Below, piece after piece: positions 3,855-51,359 of a stretch of DNA of 64,000 nucleotides. The notes beneath the pieces were generated by a model. It was not told where the DNA came from, made no database searches, and was given only the letters and a program-made list of their open reading frames with translations. The number at the start of each line of letters is the position of its first letter. Position 1 is the stretch's first letter. A program made the position numbers and the translations under genes. The stretch lies in the IMG/VR virus record IMGVR_UViG_3300046534_001374, positions 64,001-128,000 of that record; one strand, 5' to 3'. Source of the DNA: a virus.

Positions 3855-3938
3855 ATCCAACAAGACGTGAGAGAGCGACGATCTGCCGCTAGTAAAGTTT
3901 ATGGTTATATTAGATCGCGTTTTAATTCTGCGTTCATA
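3855..3938 (+). repeat. Solitary short attC-like element related to the 47.5-50.4 kb array
   Basis: ATCCAAC-aagac-gtgagagagcgacgatct...tagatcgcgttttaattc-tgc-GTTCATA. It shares the left arm and part of the loop with the array repeats and lies in a divergent intergenic region. Confidence 0.75.
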
Positions 3939-9627: not shown

Positions 9628-10776
9628 ATGAAGCAAAAATATACTAAAGAAGTGATAAAATCTATAGCCGGAAAATACACATCGAAAAAGGAATTTATAG
9701 CTAATGATCCTAATGTTTATGGATATATGCGGCGTAAAGGTGAAGATTTTTCTAAAGAAGCTTGTGCTCATATGACACAGCTTAGAAGGAAACATACTGA
9801 CGAATCATTGAAAGATATAGCCAAAGAATTTATGTCCCGAACAGAATTACAAAGGGGTGATGCCTCGGCTTACAGTTGTATTAGAAAAAAAGGTAAACAA
9901 TTCATGAACGAGGCATGTGAACATATGATTCAAGGTAGATTTTCTATAGCACAACTAATGTGTAAAAAGATATTTGAAAATATACTTGATAGTGTTTGTG
10001 TGTATGATACCCGAAAAGTTATTACTCCCTATGAAATTGATATATGGTTTAAAGAGTTTAATTTGGCAATAGAGTATAATGGAAAATTTTGGCATGCCAA
10101 AGAATGTGCAATAAGAAGAGATGCTATTAAAAAGAAAATTTGTGAAGATAGAGGTATACACTTAATAACCATATACGAAGGGGTCAAAGATTACGAGACC
10201 GAAGTTAGGCATAAAATAATAGAAATATTACCACTTATTAATAATATTACCAAAAAACAAATAACTACACAAAATGTTTTAGATGTCGATTGTTCGACAA
10301 TATGGGATGATATACTGAAGAGTAATAGTATTGACGAAATCAATAAGAAAATAAAAAAATGTAAAAACATAAAAGAATTCAAAGAAAAACATTATACCAA
10401 TTATAAATATATCCACAAAAGTGGAAATACAGATATGTTAGACTGTATCAGAGAAAAAGAAAATGAAAATTTGAGTGATGTAGAACTTATGCGGAAATGT
10501 TCAGAAATAACCCATTATGCTAAATTTATAACAGATCATAAAAATTTATACACAATTACCCACAGACGGGGATTATTAGATTCTGTAGCCAAAAATATGA
10601 TTCTCACCAATAGAAGATATAGATTTCATAAACATGAAGATATTATTAATCTGGCGGGAGAATATAAAAATAAGTCTTCTATTGAAAAGGGTGACTGTGC
10701 TTTGTTTAAAGAAATTAACAAAAGAGAAGATATTTCTTGGAGTGACATCTTATTTTTAGCGAAAAGAAAATTCTAA
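9628..10776 (+). CDS. Putative homing endonuclease (PD-(D/E)XK/Vsr-like core with repeated DNA-binding modules)
   Basis: 'EIDIWF...LAIEYNGKFWH' nuclease core plus repeated 'KY..K.EF...D..AY..R.G...C.HM' modules. Very AT-rich and opposite in strand to the flanking block. Confidence 0.7.
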   Translation: MKQKYTKEVIKSIAGKYTSKKEFIANDPNVYGYMRRKGEDFSKEACAHMTQLRRKHTDESLKDIAKEFMSRTELQRGDASAYSCIRKKGKQFMNEACEHMIQGRFSIAQLMCKKIFENILDSVCVYDTRKVITPYEIDIWFKEFNLAIEYNGKFWHAKECAIRRDAIKKKICEDRGIHLITIYEGVKDYETEVRHKIIEILPLINNITKKQITTQNVLDVDCSTIWDDILKSNSIDEINKKIKKCKNIKEFKEKHYTNYKYIHKSGNTDMLDCIREKENENLSDVELMRKCSEITHYAKFITDHKNLYTITHRRGLLDSVAKNMILTNRRYRFHKHEDIINLAGEYKNKSSIEKGDCALFKEINKREDISWSDILFLAKRKF

Positions 10777-46991: not shown

Positions 46992-47249
46992 ATGAAAACA
47001 ACGATTGCGGCTATTTTTGTTAACCTGCTAAAATTCCTAGCTGCTCGCGAATTAAATTCGAACGTTAGAACAATCATAGAACTCTATAATGAAGAAGAAA
47101 AACTTATATCAAAAATTAGCGAAGCTCACGGGTCTCTCGATTTTAGCCCTGATGGTTCTTACATCTTGCAACTCAAGCATAGGCTTGAAGCCAATAGAAA
47201 CATCATCAAACTTCTCGAAGCCAAAACGCTTCCAAGTTCCAGCGAATAG
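46992..47249 (+). CDS. Putative i-spanin (Rz-like)
   Basis: Weakly hydrophobic N-terminus plus coiled coil; overlapped by a lipoprotein gene in the +1 frame; TAAGTA late motif. Confidence 0.5.
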   Translation: MKTTIAAIFVNLLKFLAARELNSNVRTIIELYNEEEKLISKISEAHGSLDFSPDGSYILQLKHRLEANRNIIKLLEAKTLPSSSE

Positions 47250-47352
47250 TAAAGTGGTATTTAAAGGGAAGGTATTCACATTACCCGAAGATACCGATGT
47301 TGTTACTTTGGAACAACACAAAGAAGAGGTAACTAGATTACTAATAGATTAA
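47089..47352 (+). CDS. Putative o-spanin lipoprotein (Rz1-like)
   Basis: Basic N-terminus, hydrophobic stretch and LTSC lipobox; overlaps the previous gene. Confidence 0.6.
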   Translation: MKKKNLYQKLAKLTGLSILALMVLTSCNSSIGLKPIETSSNFSKPKRFQVPANSKVVFKGKVFTLPEDTDVVTLEQHKEEVTRLLID

Positions 47353-47525
47353 CCTTCTAGTAATTGCTTTTCTCCATCCGGTTCGATGCTTTCTTCTATT
47401 TTTAGTTGGTCCAAGTTTTTGAGAATTAAGATAGGGTATTCAACCCATCTATGAGGGGCATCATTGAGAAGATCGATTAATTGGGTTAATTTAGATTCCT
47501 CAATAACAAATAATTTTTCATCCAT
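47349..47525 (-). CDS. Small hypothetical late protein
   Basis: Start reassigned to MDEKLF, 5 nt after TAATTA. Confidence 0.55.
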   Translation of the reverse strand: MDEKLFVIEESKLTQLIDLLNDAPHRWVEYPILILKNLDQLKIEESIEPDGEKQLLEG

Positions 47526-47564
47526 ATTTTTAATTATCGGGAGATTGGTTTTAAACAATTATTT

Positions 47565-47683
47565 TATGAACGTCAAAGTGGAGGCGCGATCTAAACCGAA
47601 CTCCGTTCGGGATTAAAACGCGATCTAATATAAAACTCAACTAAGTTAGCGGTAGATCGTCGCTCTCCCACGCCTTGTTGTCT
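47565..47683 (-). repeat. attC site F (last in array)
   Basis: Top strand: AGACAAC-aaggc-gtg[g]gag[a]gcg[a]cgatcta...tagatcgcgcctccac-tttgac-GTTCATA. Confidence 0.88.
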
Positions 47684-47730
47684 CTTCAAGTAAAACTTGA
47701 ACTATTGATTTCGACATCTAATTAAATGTG

Positions 47731-47928
47731 ATGAAAAGTAAAATCAAAGCATGGTGGGAAACATTTTGGTTCAAATATGTCCCTGCTTCTACAAGTCAAG
47801 TGTTGTCGTGGCAGAGTAAACAGCGCGAGGAGCTGAATCGTCGGGATGCGGAGCGATATTACAATCGTCAAAATATGAAGAATAATCAACAAAAGCAGAA
47901 AGACGGTCCTGAAAATCACGAAGGATAG
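47731..47928 (+). CDS. Cassette 5 antisense ORF
   Basis: TAATTA at 47719-24, 6 nt before the ATG. Confidence 0.5.
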   Translation: MKSKIKAWWETFWFKYVPASTSQVLSWQSKQREELNRRDAERYYNRQNMKNNQQKQKDGPENHEG

Positions 47929-48106
47929 CCTCCAATTCACCACTAATAAAAGATTCTTCTATTACTTCTCCGTTTGGTTGAAAAGTTTTTCCACTGAATT
48001 TCTCATCATACGATTCATCTGAGAGTTTCTCCTTGATCACAATCCTAACGGATGATAAGTTGGAAAACGTGTAATCTAATTCGTGGTGTTTTGAGAATCT
48101 ATTCAT
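47789..48106 (-). CDS. Cassette 5 ORF (hypothetical)
   Basis: ATG 16 nt after the G of GTTGTCT. Confidence 0.5.
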   Translation of the reverse strand: MNRFSKHHELDYTFSNLSSVRIVIKEKLSDESYDEKFSGKTFQPNGEVIEESFISGELEAILRDFQDRLSAFVDYSSYFDDCNIAPHPDDSAPRAVYSATTTLDL

Positions 48107-48115
48107 GATTTTCTA

Positions 48116-48247
48116 AGACAACGATGGAGCATATCTAATCAATACCAATTTCAATATGAATACAAAAAATAATAAACAAACAACTAATGACTCCTCCAAA
48201 ACCAACCAAGGTAGCGGTAGTGAGTTAGATACTGCGCCTTGTTCACC
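48116..48247 (-). repeat. attC site E (divergent sequence family)
   Basis: Top strand: GGTGAAC-aaggc-gca[g]tatctaa[c]tc...gattagatatgc-tccatc-GTTGTCT. Confidence 0.82.
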
Positions 48248-48515
48248 TCTCCGTCTTTTTGATCTGACTAAGACAACACCAGAAATGGTTGAACAAGAAT
48301 CAAATTACGAATCCCCTACTTTGAAGCAGAAACAACTAGCTCTGAAAAAAGAGGTATATCCAGATCAATCCCCGCAAGCTCTATCAAAGAGTTATCAAGA
48401 CGCTCTTGAGCTTGGTTACGTGAAACCTCAGAATCCCAATTTTGATTGGGAACCTTATAAAGATTTGGTTTGTAGATTGGTAAATTCCGAAGATCAGATT
48501 TCAGCTTCGGTATAA
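48156..48515 (+). CDS. Cassette 4 antisense ORF starting inside attC E
   Basis: ATG in the attC loop; reads through the arm as SELDTAPCSP. Confidence 0.45.
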   Translation: MNTKNNKQTTNDSSKTNQGSGSELDTAPCSPLRLFDLTKTTPEMVEQESNYESPTLKQKQLALKKEVYPDQSPQALSKSYQDALELGYVKPQNPNFDWEPYKDLVCRLVNSEDQISASV

Positions 48516-48591
48516 TATATTGAAGCTGTTTCTTCCTGTGGTGTAATGATTCTAGTATTTCTAGGCATTGTGCTTTTGTTGGATCGGGCAT
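48316..48591 (-). CDS. Cassette 4 ORF (hypothetical)
   Basis: ATG 19 nt after the G of GTTCACC; AGGA upstream. Confidence 0.5.
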   Translation of the reverse strand: MPDPTKAQCLEILESLHHRKKQLQYIIPKLKSDLRNLPIYKPNLYKVPNQNWDSEVSRNQAQERLDNSLIELAGIDLDIPLFSELVVSASK

Positions 48592-48603
48592 GTCCTATTT
48601 CTA

Positions 48604-48722
48604 GGTGAACGTCAATGTGGAGGCGCGATCTAAACCGAACTCCGTTCGGGATTAAAACGCGATCTAATATAAAAATAAACTAAGTTAGCGGTAGATCGTC
48701 GCTCTCTCACGTCTTGTTAGCC
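48604..48722 (-). repeat. attC site D
   Basis: GGCTAAC ... GTTCACC, with 3 extrahelical bases. Confidence 0.88.
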
Positions 48723-48752
48723 CTTCAAATGGTTTTAGGGATAAATATAAGC

Positions 48753-48947
48753 ATGAGAAAACCAAACAGCCCACTAAGAACAATGGATAAGCTCCTTAAG
48801 CCATACATGCAGGAAATAAAAAATCCCGATAGCTGTGATGATCTACTAAATTATTTTGCAGATTGTATGGATGAATGGTGGAATAATCTAGATGCACGAA
48901 ATAAAGAATGCCCCCTTCCCCGAAAAGCTAATCTAGAGAAAATATAG
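48753..48947 (+). CDS. Cassette 3 antisense ORF
   Basis: TAAATA at 48742-47, 5 nt before the ATG. Confidence 0.5.
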   Translation: MRKPNSPLRTMDKLLKPYMQEIKNPDSCDDLLNYFADCMDEWWNNLDARNKECPLPRKANLEKI

Positions 48948-49164
48948 TTCCGTCAGTTTCAATTCGTTTGGCAAAATCTTGTATCTTATCTTTATCTTTC
49001 AGTGAATTTAGAGCTACTTCAATCTGAGAAGCCGTTAGATTCCCTTTTTCTTGTTCAGTGATATGCCATTCTCCAAAATCTTCAGAGTTTATTTTCTTTA
49101 AGATTTCGGTTTCCAGTTCTCTTTTTGGGTTTAGTCTAAGATTATAGTTATTTGGTTCTGACAT
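48928..49164 (-). CDS. Cassette 3 ORF (hypothetical)
   Basis: ATG 24 nt after the G of GTTAGCC. Confidence 0.55.
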   Translation of the reverse strand: MSEPNNYNLRLNPKRELETEILKKINSEDFGEWHITEQEKGNLTASQIEVALNSLKDKDKIQDFAKRIETDGTIFSLD

Positions 49165-49181
49165 GATTTCTTAGATTCTCG

Positions 49182-49299
49182 GGCTAACGTCAATGTGGAG
49201 GCGCGATCTAAACCGAACTCCGTTCGGAATTAAAACGCGATAATACATAAACATAACTAAGCTAGCGGTAGATCGTCGCCCTCTCACGCCTTGTTCTGC
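49182..49299 (-). repeat. attC site C
   Basis: GCAGAAC ... GTTAGCC. Confidence 0.88.
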
Positions 49300-49319
49300 A
49301 TCTGGGCCTAAGTATGAAT

Positions 49320-49670
49320 ATGACCTATGAACAAGAACGAATCCTAATAAACCAAACAATCCAAGATTACCTAAATTCATGGCATCATCGCATCTGGACC
49401 CAAGCGATCACTCAACTTGACCTGTCAGTTCCAAATACCCCCTTTCGTCTTGTGAGATTTGAACTAGGGCGACTTCTTCTTGTTTTATCTCACCTTGTGT
49501 TTGTCGGTTCCCATCTAAAAGACAGAGTGCTTCAAACATTCGGTGCTGGGGAAAAATTTGACACCTTACAAGGTCCAGTGGCAACATTAGGTTTTCGAGA
49601 TCAGTTCTCAGACTATACCAAAATCTACCGACATAAGATCCACCACGAAGATCAAAATCGTTGCAAATGA
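49320..49670 (+). CDS. Cassette 2 antisense ORF
   Basis: TAAGTA at 49309-14, 5 nt before the ATG. Confidence 0.45.
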   Translation: MTYEQERILINQTIQDYLNSWHHRIWTQAITQLDLSVPNTPFRLVRFELGRLLLVLSHLVFVGSHLKDRVLQTFGAGEKFDTLQGPVATLGFRDQFSDYTKIYRHKIHHEDQNRCK

Positions 49671-49782
49671 AAATAATCCTTTCGGAGCTTTGATATACCA
49701 TTTTCGCATCAAGAAAATTACTTAGATCAAGTTCTTCGTCGGGATCACTATAATACAGTCTAAAATATGTAGGTTTACTCAT
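49408..49782 (-). CDS. Cassette 2 ORF (hypothetical)
   Basis: ATG 23 nt after the G of GTTCTGC. Confidence 0.5.
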   Translation of the reverse strand: MSKPTYFRLYYSDPDEELDLSNFLDAKMVYQSSERIIFICNDFDLRGGSYVGRFWYSLRTDLENLMLPLDLVRCQIFPQHRMFEALCLLDGNRQTQGEIKQEEVALVQISQDERGYLELTGQVE

Positions 49783-49798
49783 GGATTCTTAGTTTCTA

Positions 49799-49917
49799 GC
49801 AGAACGTCAATGTGGAGGCGCGATCTAAACCGAACGTAGTTCGGGATTAAAACGCGATCTAATATAAAAATAAACTAAGTTAGCGGTAGATCGTCGTCCT
49901 CCCACGTCTTGTTCTGC
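49799..49917 (-). repeat. attC site B
   Basis: GCAGAAC-aagac-gtg[g]gagg[a]cg[a]cgatcta...tagatcgcgcctccac-attgac-GTTCTGC. Confidence 0.88.
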
Positions 49918-49958
49918 ATCTGGATTTGAAAAGTTTGATGTGATTACTAATTAAAGTA

Positions 49959-50108
49959 ATGAACGAACAAAAAACTTTGGTGTATGATGGTGAACTAACT
50001 CTAGACGAAGCCAGAAACAAAATCAGAAACAAAGATGGTTCAAAACTTACGGATGCGGAGTTTGTTGAATTATTCCAACCCTTTACCAAGGAAGCTTCTC
50101 GTCCCTAA
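49959..50108 (+). CDS. Cassette 1 antisense ORF (49 aa, not in ORF track)
   Basis: MNEQKTLVYDGELTLDEARNK...EASRP*; TAATTA at 49948-53, 5 nt before the ATG. Confidence 0.5.
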   Translation: MNEQKTLVYDGELTLDEARNKIRNKDGSKLTDAEFVELFQPFTKEASRP

Positions 50109-50271
50109 TTTCAATATTGTTTAAAATCACAAGCGGTAACCCCTCATTTGTTCGTTTAGTAATTTTAGATTGTTTCTCACACCACTCCATTTCTGATTGA
50201 TTTGGTGTTTGGAATGACCAAATATAATATTCTGGTCCTTGTGAGTTGGTTACGGTGTATTGCTGGATCAT
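50083..50271 (-). CDS. Cassette 1 ORF (hypothetical)
   Basis: ATG 30 nt after the G of GTTCTGC. Confidence 0.5.
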   Translation of the reverse strand: MIQQYTVTNSQGPEYYIWSFQTPNQSEMEWCEKQSKITKRTNEGLPLVILNNIEIRDEKLPW

Positions 50272-50294
50272 AATTATCTAGTAGGTAATTTATT

Positions 50295-50413
50295 GCAGAA
50301 CGTCAATGTGGAGGCGCGATCTAAACCGAACTCCGTTCGGAATTGAAACGCGATCTGATATAAAAATAAACTAAGCTAGCGGTAGAACGTCACTCTCTCA
50401 CGTCTTATTAATA
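50295..50413 (-). repeat. attC site A (first in array, R'' decayed)
   Basis: R'' reads TATTAAT (AAC lost), with extra mismatches in the arm; R' GTTCTGC is intact. Confidence 0.8.
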
Positions 50414-50456
50414 ATATAAAACTTGAAAAGAGGAATTTTTATAGTAATCTCATCTT

Positions 50457-51359
50457 ATGAAGAACATCCTAATAGATGCCAACAATATGCTACACAGGAG
50501 CATAGGCAACACCGAGAAGTATCTAGAAAAAAATTCGAGAGCAACTAGAAAGCTGGACAATAAAGGAAACGATGTCACTGCTTTGCAGAAGTTTTTTTCG
50601 GATATATACTATACCTCCTCAGATTTTCTTGATGCAGACACAGAAATTTATATGGTGTGGGATAGGAAGATCGACCCAGAAGCGATCAACTGGAGAACCA
50701 CAGTTAACCCACTTTATAAAGCAAACAGAGGATCTATAGATACTAATGGTCCGAAGAAGCAAGTGTATAGCCTATGTAAACATGCCAAATATATAGCAGA
50801 TGCCTACGGGTTTCATTCAGTATTTCCCCTCTGCTCCGAAGCAGACGACCTAATACATTATCTCAATAAAAACCTAGAAGGCGGTAGTTTGATTATTTCT
50901 TCCGACCATGACTTCTTCCAATGTATATCTGAGGATTGCAGTATTTATAACCCCCAGAAAAGAATGCTTCTGGAACTTGATAACTGGGATGAATATGCCC
51001 CAGTATCTAAAGAACACTATGTTTTATGGAAATCAATTAAGGGCGACCCCTCTGATAACATCAAAGGGTTGTTCCGTTATGGTGAGAAGAAAGCTAAAAA
51101 GCTGGTCGAGAACTGGGACGAGCTTTCACCTAAACTGACAGAGGAGCAAATAGATATTATTGAGGAAACTAAAAGTTTAATTGATCTTAATTTTAAACCT
51201 TTATCTGATAAAGAGGTGTGCTTCATTAAGAGGCAGATCGAGCCTAAAGAAAAAAAGAAAGATTGGGAATTGACTCGGATTCTGGACAACTACCATGTCA
51301 CCTACAAGACCAGAGAGATGTGGGATAACTTCAACACCCTAAAAGAGTTATATCTATAA
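50457..51359 (+). CDS. rnh: T4-type RNase H / 5'-3' exonuclease
   Basis: IDANN, YKANR, EADD, SSDHDF.Q and GDPSDNIKG motifs. Confidence 0.92.
   Translation: MKNILIDANNMLHRSIGNTEKYLEKNSRATRKLDNKGNDVTALQKFFSDIYYTSSDFLDADTEIYMVWDRKIDPEAINWRTTVNPLYKANRGSIDTNGPKKQVYSLCKHAKYIADAYGFHSVFPLCSEADDLIHYLNKNLEGGSLIISSDHDFFQCISEDCSIYNPQKRMLLELDNWDEYAPVSKEHYVLWKSIKGDPSDNIKGLFRYGEKKAKKLVENWDELSPKLTEEQIDIIEETKSLIDLNFKPLSDKEVCFIKRQIEPKEKKKDWELTRILDNYHVTYKTREMWDNFNTLKELYL

Follow-up and report, generated by a model that had tools for sequence, protein, structure and literature searches.

In the usual description, an integron cassette is a single gene without a promoter, dependent on the integron promoter Pc. 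The late promoter of phage T4 is TATAAATA, an octamer read by gp55 that is a -10 element only, without a -35 box. T4-type phages reportedly also carry PeSL cassettes, in which repeated promoter and hairpin elements flank small open reading frames (ORFs) in plastic regions; the PeSLs are said to be short early-promoter stem-loops that recombine by homology, and they are thought to shuffle the small ORFs. The subject of this analysis is a cassette array at positions 47565-50413 of a window of 64,000 nucleotides (nt), which covers bases 64001-128000 of the uncultured virus record IMGVR_UViG_3300046534_001374 (139,595 bp; record about 65% complete). Its five cassettes are probably convergent or divergent two-gene modules, in which the genes on the plus strand, antisense to the cassettes, would be self-expressed from their own leaderless start without Pc. 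Integrase-less attC cassette arrays (CALIN) have been described in virulent phages (Qi et al. 2023, Front Microbiol 14:1091391; PMC9892861), and phage attC sites can serve as substrates of bacterial integrase (PMC9892861). Cassette-borne promoters are known from cmlA, qacE, qnrVC, and toxin-antitoxin cassettes, and antisense-strand promoters from ORF-less Treponema cassettes (PMC8876359).

Comparison with the arrays of PMC9892861 showed that all of them are integrase-less and consist of small ORFan cassettes bounded by attC inside a lytic-type phage genome, whereas a putative antisense gene in every cassette of low guanine-cytosine (GC) content, a T4-like phage as the carrier, and identical cassettes in other arrays are features of the present case. 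The word "antisense" is absent from that paper, and self-promoted antisense genes were not seen described there. Phage attC arrays are already published, and the antisense-gene layer appears to be new. As in the cassettes of PMC8876359, sigma70-like promoters within the cassettes would free expression from Pc, and antisense-strand promoters occur; however, those promoters drive the sense gene or lie in ORF-less cassettes, while the predicted promoter here adjoins attC and points back into the cassette, 5-6 nt from the ATG of a second gene. Unlike PeSLs, the repeats are attC-type sites of ~120 nt that have AAC/GTT boxes and bulged bases and pair cassette-specifically through their R boxes. The start signal resembles T4 late promoters in its AT-rich, -10-like element, which often stands without a -35 box and precedes structural genes, and in the variants TAAATA and TATAATTA, but here the distance to the ATG is fixed at 5-6 nt, which would imply a leaderless mRNA unlike in T4, many sites are without the TA prefix, and some have a -35 box.

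Two related T4-like phages and further arrays of the same ice-metagenome series contain the cassette family, with a second putative gene whose own start lies beside or inside the recombination site. Expression of these genes, if it occurs, would explain the usefulness of integrase-less, Pc-less arrays to lytic phages, offer a concrete example of the exchange of identical cassettes between phage and integron pools, and provide a compact natural system for the study of convergent or overlapping gene pairs and leaderless promoters.

Cassette array and attC repeats

To judge by its repeats, box pairing, and cassette junctions, the region is an integrase-less array of five genuine integron cassettes. 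Six repeats of ~120 nt delimit it (Table 1), and AAC...GTT triplets in inverse R boxes were found in all of them and in two other copies of the genome, the outer box of the boundary copy R5 having ATT. As single-stranded DNA the repeats fold like attC, with paired AAC/GTT boxes, unpaired spacers of 6 and 5 nt, a 16-bp stem, and a variable top; the stem has three bulged bases, all in the plus-strand 3' arm. The DNA fold of R4 reaches -24.9 kcal/mol (z -4.8), and covariation is absent, the copies being near-identical. Cassette-specific end complementarity of 7-8 nt, between the box to the right of a repeat and the box to the left of the next one, was present in seven of the seven cassettes of the genome, versus 3 nt (GTT alone) when the boxes of the same attC were paired as a control; the exceptions among these controls were R4, where a box common to cassettes 1 and 2 gives 7 nt, and R5, with 0 nt (degenerate outer box). 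Each attC belongs to the body on its right in plus orientation, so that the top strand of the cassettes is the minus strand of the window and the plus-strand ORFs are antisense, as the first-pass annotation had assumed; the recombinogenic (bottom) strand is expected to be the plus one.

Several of these cassettes recur elsewhere. R4 and cassette 1 together (window 49806-50300) recur at 100% identity in three contigs, each from a different sample, where the copies sit among GC-richer cassettes with different attC sites. Window 48128-48610 (variant attC and cassette 4) is 99.4% identical in three further contigs, and in contig L134 a GC-rich cassette comes after a variant of cassette 2. The moved units of cassettes 1 and 4 each consist of the body and one attC, with a right junction that is exactly canonical (G|TT) and a left junction that is off by a 5-nt spacer insert. 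In the other arrays, the attC of cassette 1 is longer by five bases (GTAGA), which separate its AAC box from the stem (L010:1836-1848, L013:115-127). Chimeric assembly of the other arrays was ruled out, as the junctions lie at exact cassette ends, share no repeats, and recur in three samples. The repeat at 48116-48247 was also considered as a decayed copy and this was rejected, since it is mobile and conserved, a working attC variant.

No match to the tyrosine recombinase family PF00589 (integron integrase) was found in the 139.6-kb record, itself ~65% complete, and the array was classed as a CALIN and not as a complete integron because of this result. No Pc promoter is present in the record either, and no attI next to the array; the array is flanked by a small phage gene and the RNaseH gene. 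The attC repeats had no match in Rfam, and the array none by blastn among 50,697 phage records. Exact attC core patterns returned nothing from viral and genome collections apart from one chance match in a GC-rich virus. With a 17-nt pattern, too short for the purpose, 120 metagenome loci were obtained, 119 of which are without the repeat (115 with no wider match and four matching only over the first 20-23 nt); the full repeat copy was found in L019 only.

Start signals, recurrence, and coding potential of the antisense ORFs

The first-pass annotation had described, in cassettes 1, 2, 3, and 5, a plus-strand ORF behind a TAADTA hexamer placed 5 or 6 nt before its ATG. All four sites are present and open ORFs of 49, 116, 64, and 65 codons, respectively. 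These antisense ORFs start 14-41 nt inside their cassettes, adjoining the cassette's own attC, and the sense ORFs begin 10-25 nt after the preceding attC. As had also been noted, the plus ORFs converge on and overlap the minus ORFs, and the latter end well before their attC, the measured distance to its R box being ~90-190 nt. Cassette 4 differs, with a plus ORF beginning inside its own attC and a sense ORF of doubtful coding: the loop of the variant attC contains ATG 48156 and the first ~30 codons of c4+, and a terminator-like hairpin at 48502-48528 covers its last codons and stop. The sense ORFs of both low-GC and GC-rich cassettes begin right after CTAGAAA, CTAAGAA, or GGAAA, without Shine-Dalgarno spacing (for instance, window 49783-49800 and 49165-49185, and L010:1824-1836), and this leader may be a host-specific translation context.

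The spacing between motif and ATG proved to be well above chance. Dinucleotide shuffles of the five cassette bodies give an expectation of 0.11 plus-strand sites, against four seen, and none of 2000 shuffles reached four; the minus strand of the bodies holds no TAADTA-N5/6-ATG site. Across the genome 61 such sites were counted, versus 17.2 +/- 3.7 in shuffles, and 53 of them (87%) open ORFs of at least 45 codons, compared with 24% of all ATGs. Among 120 long ORFs, the spacing of the hexamer has a sharp peak, with a spacer of 5 nt at 24 ORFs and of 6 nt at 8, and the distance from -10 element to ATG fits a leaderless start in 32.

The proposal that this hexamer is the late-promoter motif of the structural genes holds only in part. 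The motif and its spacing do precede the sheath, tail tube, adaptor-like, and many other genes; they also stand before small conserved non-structural genes, such as c0 and an 85-aa ORF at 46992. The term "late promoter" is too narrow, as the T4-late-like form TATAADTA, with the TA prefix, accounts for only 7 of 53 sites, and a TTG-type -35 box is found at 9 of 53, nearly all at exactly 16 nt, versus a background of 5%. Such boxes stand 16 nt upstream in cassette 1 (TTGAAA), cassette 5 (TTGAAC), and cassette cG1 of a second array in the same genome (TTGACA), signals that would represent a sigma70-type early design. The RNaseH gene has the same design; in its orthologue from a related phage the sequence differs but the spacing is retained. 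In total, 41 sigma70-like promoters end 5-7 nt before an ATG, versus 15.1 +/- 3.9 expected. This pattern suggests that leaderless mRNAs may be the rule for early genes of the phage lineage, and we infer that the lineage starts many genes as leaderless or near-leaderless mRNAs and that the antisense ORFs of the cassettes use the same native design.

Other genes of the genome show comparable starts. Many small genes have the order TTGACA, 16-17 nt, TAnnnT, 6 nt, ATG, often ending in ...TATAACGACATG (window 12327 (-) and 50457 (+); genome 19288, 37790, 40929 (-)). A TAATTA-5 nt-ATG start is also found at a 382-aa gene with homing/HNH endonuclease matches in PHROGs (window 9628-10776, plus strand). 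Outside the window, two divergent genes at genome 55613 (-) and 55630 (+) share a single palindromic TAATTA, 5 nt from each ATG, which seems to serve both directions.

Recurrence of the arrangement in cassettes with unrelated contents is, as far as predicted ORFs can tell, its strongest support. An antisense-oriented ORF behind a defined start was found in all 13 of the 13 low-GC cassettes of this attC family that were examined, the pairs being convergent in phage-type cassettes and divergent in two cases. In the source gene calls, each GC-richer cassette of these arrays has a single sense ORF, and the motif opens no ORF of more than 27 codons in such cassettes. Contigs L143/L144 come from a related phage (GC 36%, with a neighbouring gene ~50% identical to a gene of this phage) that has the array at another locus; they are ENA assemblies, one of them from a crustacean metagenome, another environment with the same attC family. 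Cassettes of this related phage that have the same R boxes encode unrelated proteins. These observations make the cassette system look endemic to this phage lineage. The variant attC with an ATG in its loop occurs at window 48116-48247, genome 10080-10200, L143:322-452, and L145:~585-712, where it encodes ~30 N-terminal residues (MNTKNNKQTTND...GSGSELDTAPC) common to four proteins, c4+ and three others, whose bodies are unrelated. The variant attC would thereby double as a coding "leader exon".

Coding potential was measured by a codon-class margin, defined as the amount by which the log-likelihood of the coding frame exceeds that of the best among the other five frame classes. In 125 shadow ORFs the mean was -0.17 and the maximum 0.018, and in true gene chunks the mean was 0.196. 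The ORFs c1+, c3+, and c4+ have phage-like codon usage and margins within the body of the true-gene distribution, which supports a coding role for them; the antisense ORFs of the second array score 0.194 and 0.210 (Table 1). The sense ORFs range from 0.105 to 0.223, with the exception of c4-, and the ORFs of both strands are phage-like in GC and codon usage. The overlapping partners in cassettes 2, 4, and 5 use the antisense frame richest in stops (8.2%). When one partner was recoded synonymously and the share of recodings leaving the other frame open was counted, the values were 3% and 1% in cassette 2, 1.8% and 1.4% in cassette 4, and 15% and 42% in cassette 5; from these rates, dual coding in cassettes 2 and 4 is possible but unproven. 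The cassette 2 variant has only two substitutions, too few to decide; in c2+ one is synonymous and the other Leu to Ile, and in c2- they give Gly to Glu and Gly to Cys. Single-sequence AlphaFold gave a pLDDT of 58 for c2+ and 38 for c2-, which is uninformative because single sequences favour helices.

Several points weigh against a reading of the antisense ORFs as self-expressed genes. Cassettes 2 and 3 have no -35 box. The margins of c2+ and c4- are weak, leaving their coding ambiguous, and c5+ is borderline, with an overlapped part that scores as a shadow frame. The source annotation calls no plus ORFs other than c1+ and c4+, with c3+ added in sister contigs. The tally of 13 cassettes is biased toward open frames, some of the cassettes having been found by way of called proteins. 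Copies in other arrays show 99-100% identity, with 0-2 substitutions inside the bodies, so that no test of nonsynonymous to synonymous substitution (dN/dS) per strand was possible. Searches of Pfam, PHROGs, and PADLOC returned nothing significant for ORFs of either strand; in a database of 5.8 billion proteins c1+ and c2- returned only themselves, full HMMER with c2+ against 1.84 billion representatives gave no match, and scores in the ESM Atlas for c4+ and c2- were at most 0.83, the noise level.

In the proposed mechanism, the sense ORFs of cassettes 1, 2, 3, and 5 would be promoterless and need read-through transcription, and the antisense ORFs have the standard start of the phage lineage, a -10-like TAADTA 5-6 nt before the ATG, to which a TTGAnn box 16 nt upstream of the hexamer is added in three cassettes. 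A leaderless mRNA is predicted because the spacing of the hexamer puts the start of transcription at or next to the A of the ATG. Expression of the plus-strand gene could then be autonomous in each cassette, early and/or late in infection, with no need of Pc; in a Pc-less phage array the antisense genes would be those with autonomous signals, and convergent transcription may additionally tune the sense gene. The sequence itself shows the start signals with their statistics and recurrence, the mobility of the cassettes, and the phage-like codon usage of c1+, c3+, and c4+; transcription, leaderless translation, and any protein function of the plus ORFs are predicted. Among the options raised by the first-pass annotation, that of self-promoting, phage-adapted, Pc-independent cassettes fits best with the lack of an integrase and of Pc in 139.6 kb, the phage-like GC and codon usage, and the pattern in all 13 low-GC cassettes. 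A more far-reaching idea, which we regard as tentative and rather unlikely, is that the T4-like phage lineage keeps its own pool of two-faced cassettes, with the sense gene read from Pc in bacterial arrays and the antisense gene from a built-in, leaderless, phage-type promoter in the phage. Such a cassette could pay its way in both while shuttling between them, the variant attC encoding the start and the first 30 residues of the antisense protein.

Table 1. Features of the cassette array and of cassettes with the same attC family (window positions unless stated; c1+ to c5+ are the antisense ORFs and c1- to c5- the sense ORFs of cassettes 1 to 5)
Feature	Position	Strand	Boxes or start signal	Length (aa)	Codon margin	Remarks
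c0	47349-47525	-	TAATTA, 5 nt, ATG	58		Conserved phage gene; left border of insertion
attC R1	47565-47683	-	TATGAAC / GTTGTCT			attC of cassette 5
Cassette 5 start module	47697-47733	+	TTGAAC, 16 nt, TAATTA (47719-47724), 6 nt, ATG 47731
c5+	47731-47928	+		65	0.099	Overlap with c5- 140 nt
c5-	47789-48106	-		105	0.172	Sense ORF
Variant attC	48116-48247	-	AGACAAC / GTTCACC			Divergent; attC of cassette 4
c4+	48156-48515	+	ATG 48156	119	0.191	ATG inside variant attC
c4-	48316-48591	-		91	0.028	Ambiguous; not in source annotation
attC R2	48604-48722	-	GGTGAAC / GTTAGCC			attC of cassette 3
Cassette 3 start and c3+	48742-48947	+	TAAATA (48742-48747), 5 nt, ATG 48753	64	0.169	Called as 72-aa form in sister contigs
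c3-	48928-49164	-		78	0.223	Sense ORF; overlap with c3+ 20 nt
attC R3	49182-49299	-	GGCTAAC / GTTCTGC			attC of cassette 2
Cassette 2 start and c2+	49309-49670	+	TAAGTA (49309-49314), 5 nt, ATG 49320	116	0.035
c2-	49408-49782	-		124	0.145	Sense ORF; overlap with c2+ 263 nt
attC R4	49799-49917	-	GCAGAAC / GTTCTGC			Moves with cassette 1
Cassette 1 module and c1+	49926-50108	+	TTGAAA, 16 nt, TAATTA (49948-49953), 5 nt, ATG 49959	49	0.286
c1-	50083-50271	-		62	0.105	Sense ORF; overlap with c1+ 26 nt
attC R5	50295-50413	-	Outer box ATTAATA (ATT replacing GTT)			Boundary copy, outer box degenerate
RNaseH / 5'-3' exonuclease gene	50423-51359	+	TTGAAA, 16 nt, TAATCT, 6 nt, ATG			Right border of insertion
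cG1	Second array of same genome (genome 9039-10200)		TTGACA, 16 nt, TAATTA, 5 nt, ATG	Antisense 55, sense 81	0.194 (cG1+)
cG2	Second array of same genome		Same ATG inside variant attC	Antisense 113, sense 46	0.210 (cG2+)	Overlap 4 nt
Cassette a	L143/L144			Antisense 86, sense 77		Antisense ORF starts inside attC
Cassette b	L143/L144		TAATTA, 6 nt, ATG	Antisense 61, sense 78
Cassette c	L143/L144		TGTATAATTA, 5 nt, ATG	Antisense 76, sense 74		Divergent arrangement
First cassette	L145/L146		TTGATA, 16 nt, TAAATA, 5 nt, ATG	Antisense 66 codons, sense 75
Variant-attC cassette	L145/L146			Antisense 113, sense 67
Low-GC cassette	L019		TAATTA, 5 nt, ATG	Sense 120

Alternative explanations

The antisense signals could be promoters only, whose plus-strand transcripts silence or tune the sense ORF by transcriptional interference or RNA pairing, the frames being incidental and untranslated. 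This explanation, which we hold to be unlikely for the array as a whole, draws on the long overlaps in cassettes 2 and 5, where the overlapped part is weak or shadow-like in codon statistics, and on the known antisense-strand promoters of ORF-less cassettes (PMC8876359). However, c1+, c3+, cG1+, and cG2+ fill their own space (overlaps of 4-86 nt) and score as true genes, and in every case the ATG stands at a fixed 5-6 nt from the hexamer. In addition, cassettes 2 and 4 have both frames open, an outcome that only 1-3% of synonymous recodings permit, and behind the attC-internal ATG four unrelated bodies have open frames of 86-119 codons. The plus-strand start of cassettes 2 and 5 is probably a real one; there, the long overlapping frame may be translated, or the transcript may act only as antisense RNA.

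Convergent toxin/antidote or effector/regulator pairs, for instance an addiction module holding the cassette in place or a defence/counter-defence pair, would account for a convergent arrangement that is consistent across cassettes with unrelated contents, and chromosomal integrons commonly contain toxin-antitoxin cassettes that have promoters of their own (PMC8876359; PMC13108822). Nevertheless, none of the ORFs matched Pfam, PHROGs, or PADLOC families, no family recurs among the partners across cassettes, and known type II pairs are co-directional operons, whereas the pairs here are convergent, which makes this an improbable account of the cassettes.

The first-pass annotation had also raised overprinting by the phage of captured bacterial cassettes, with sense ORFs of host origin and plus ORFs arising de novo in the phage. 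The sense ORFs do have the cassette-typical CTAGAAA/CTAAGAA leader, which is also found in GC-richer cassettes, and the extensive overlap in c2 and c5 would fit such an origin. Against it count cassette 1, whose plus ORF and promoter are 100% identical in other arrays, the phage-like composition of the ORFs on both strands, and the promoter module beside attC, which is common to cassettes with different bodies. In most cassettes the plus ORF occupies otherwise empty space, and in cassettes 1 and 3 the ORFs barely overlap, which disfavours the proposal for these two in particular; overall, it appears very improbable. Chance ORFs and motifs in AT-rich DNA have a negligible claim, for although the genome commonly has shadow ORFs longer than 100 aa and the hexamer is low in information content, no shuffle reached four sites, the great majority of motif sites open real-looking ORFs, and the pattern is present in every one of the 13 cassettes.

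Phage genome and insertion site

The window has a GC content of 38%, and on its gene content the source is a distant T4-like myovirus. Its family B DNA polymerase has 27% identity to those of Vibrio T4-likes, and further T4-like genes encode UvsW, a DnaB-like helicase, tail sheath, tail tube, large terminase, a gp5-like baseplate protein, and RNaseH. In the related phage L140, which shares 66% identity in a neighbouring 366-aa protein, the c0 and RNaseH genes lie 76 nt apart and the array is absent, for which reason the array is regarded as an insertion into a divergent control region. This 76-nt intergenic region is intact at L140:9359-9434, and its counterparts in the window are 47526-47564 and 50414-50456. 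The gene c0 was considered as a sixth cassette and this was ruled out, since it is conserved in the relative without the array. A search with the RNaseH protein did not find a close viral relative.

Elsewhere in the window, a half attC (3' arm) is found at 3859-3926 on the minus strand, directly upstream of a 538-aa head-tail-adaptor-like gene with a TAATTA-6 nt-ATG start; this half site may be what remains of a cassette array that was lost.

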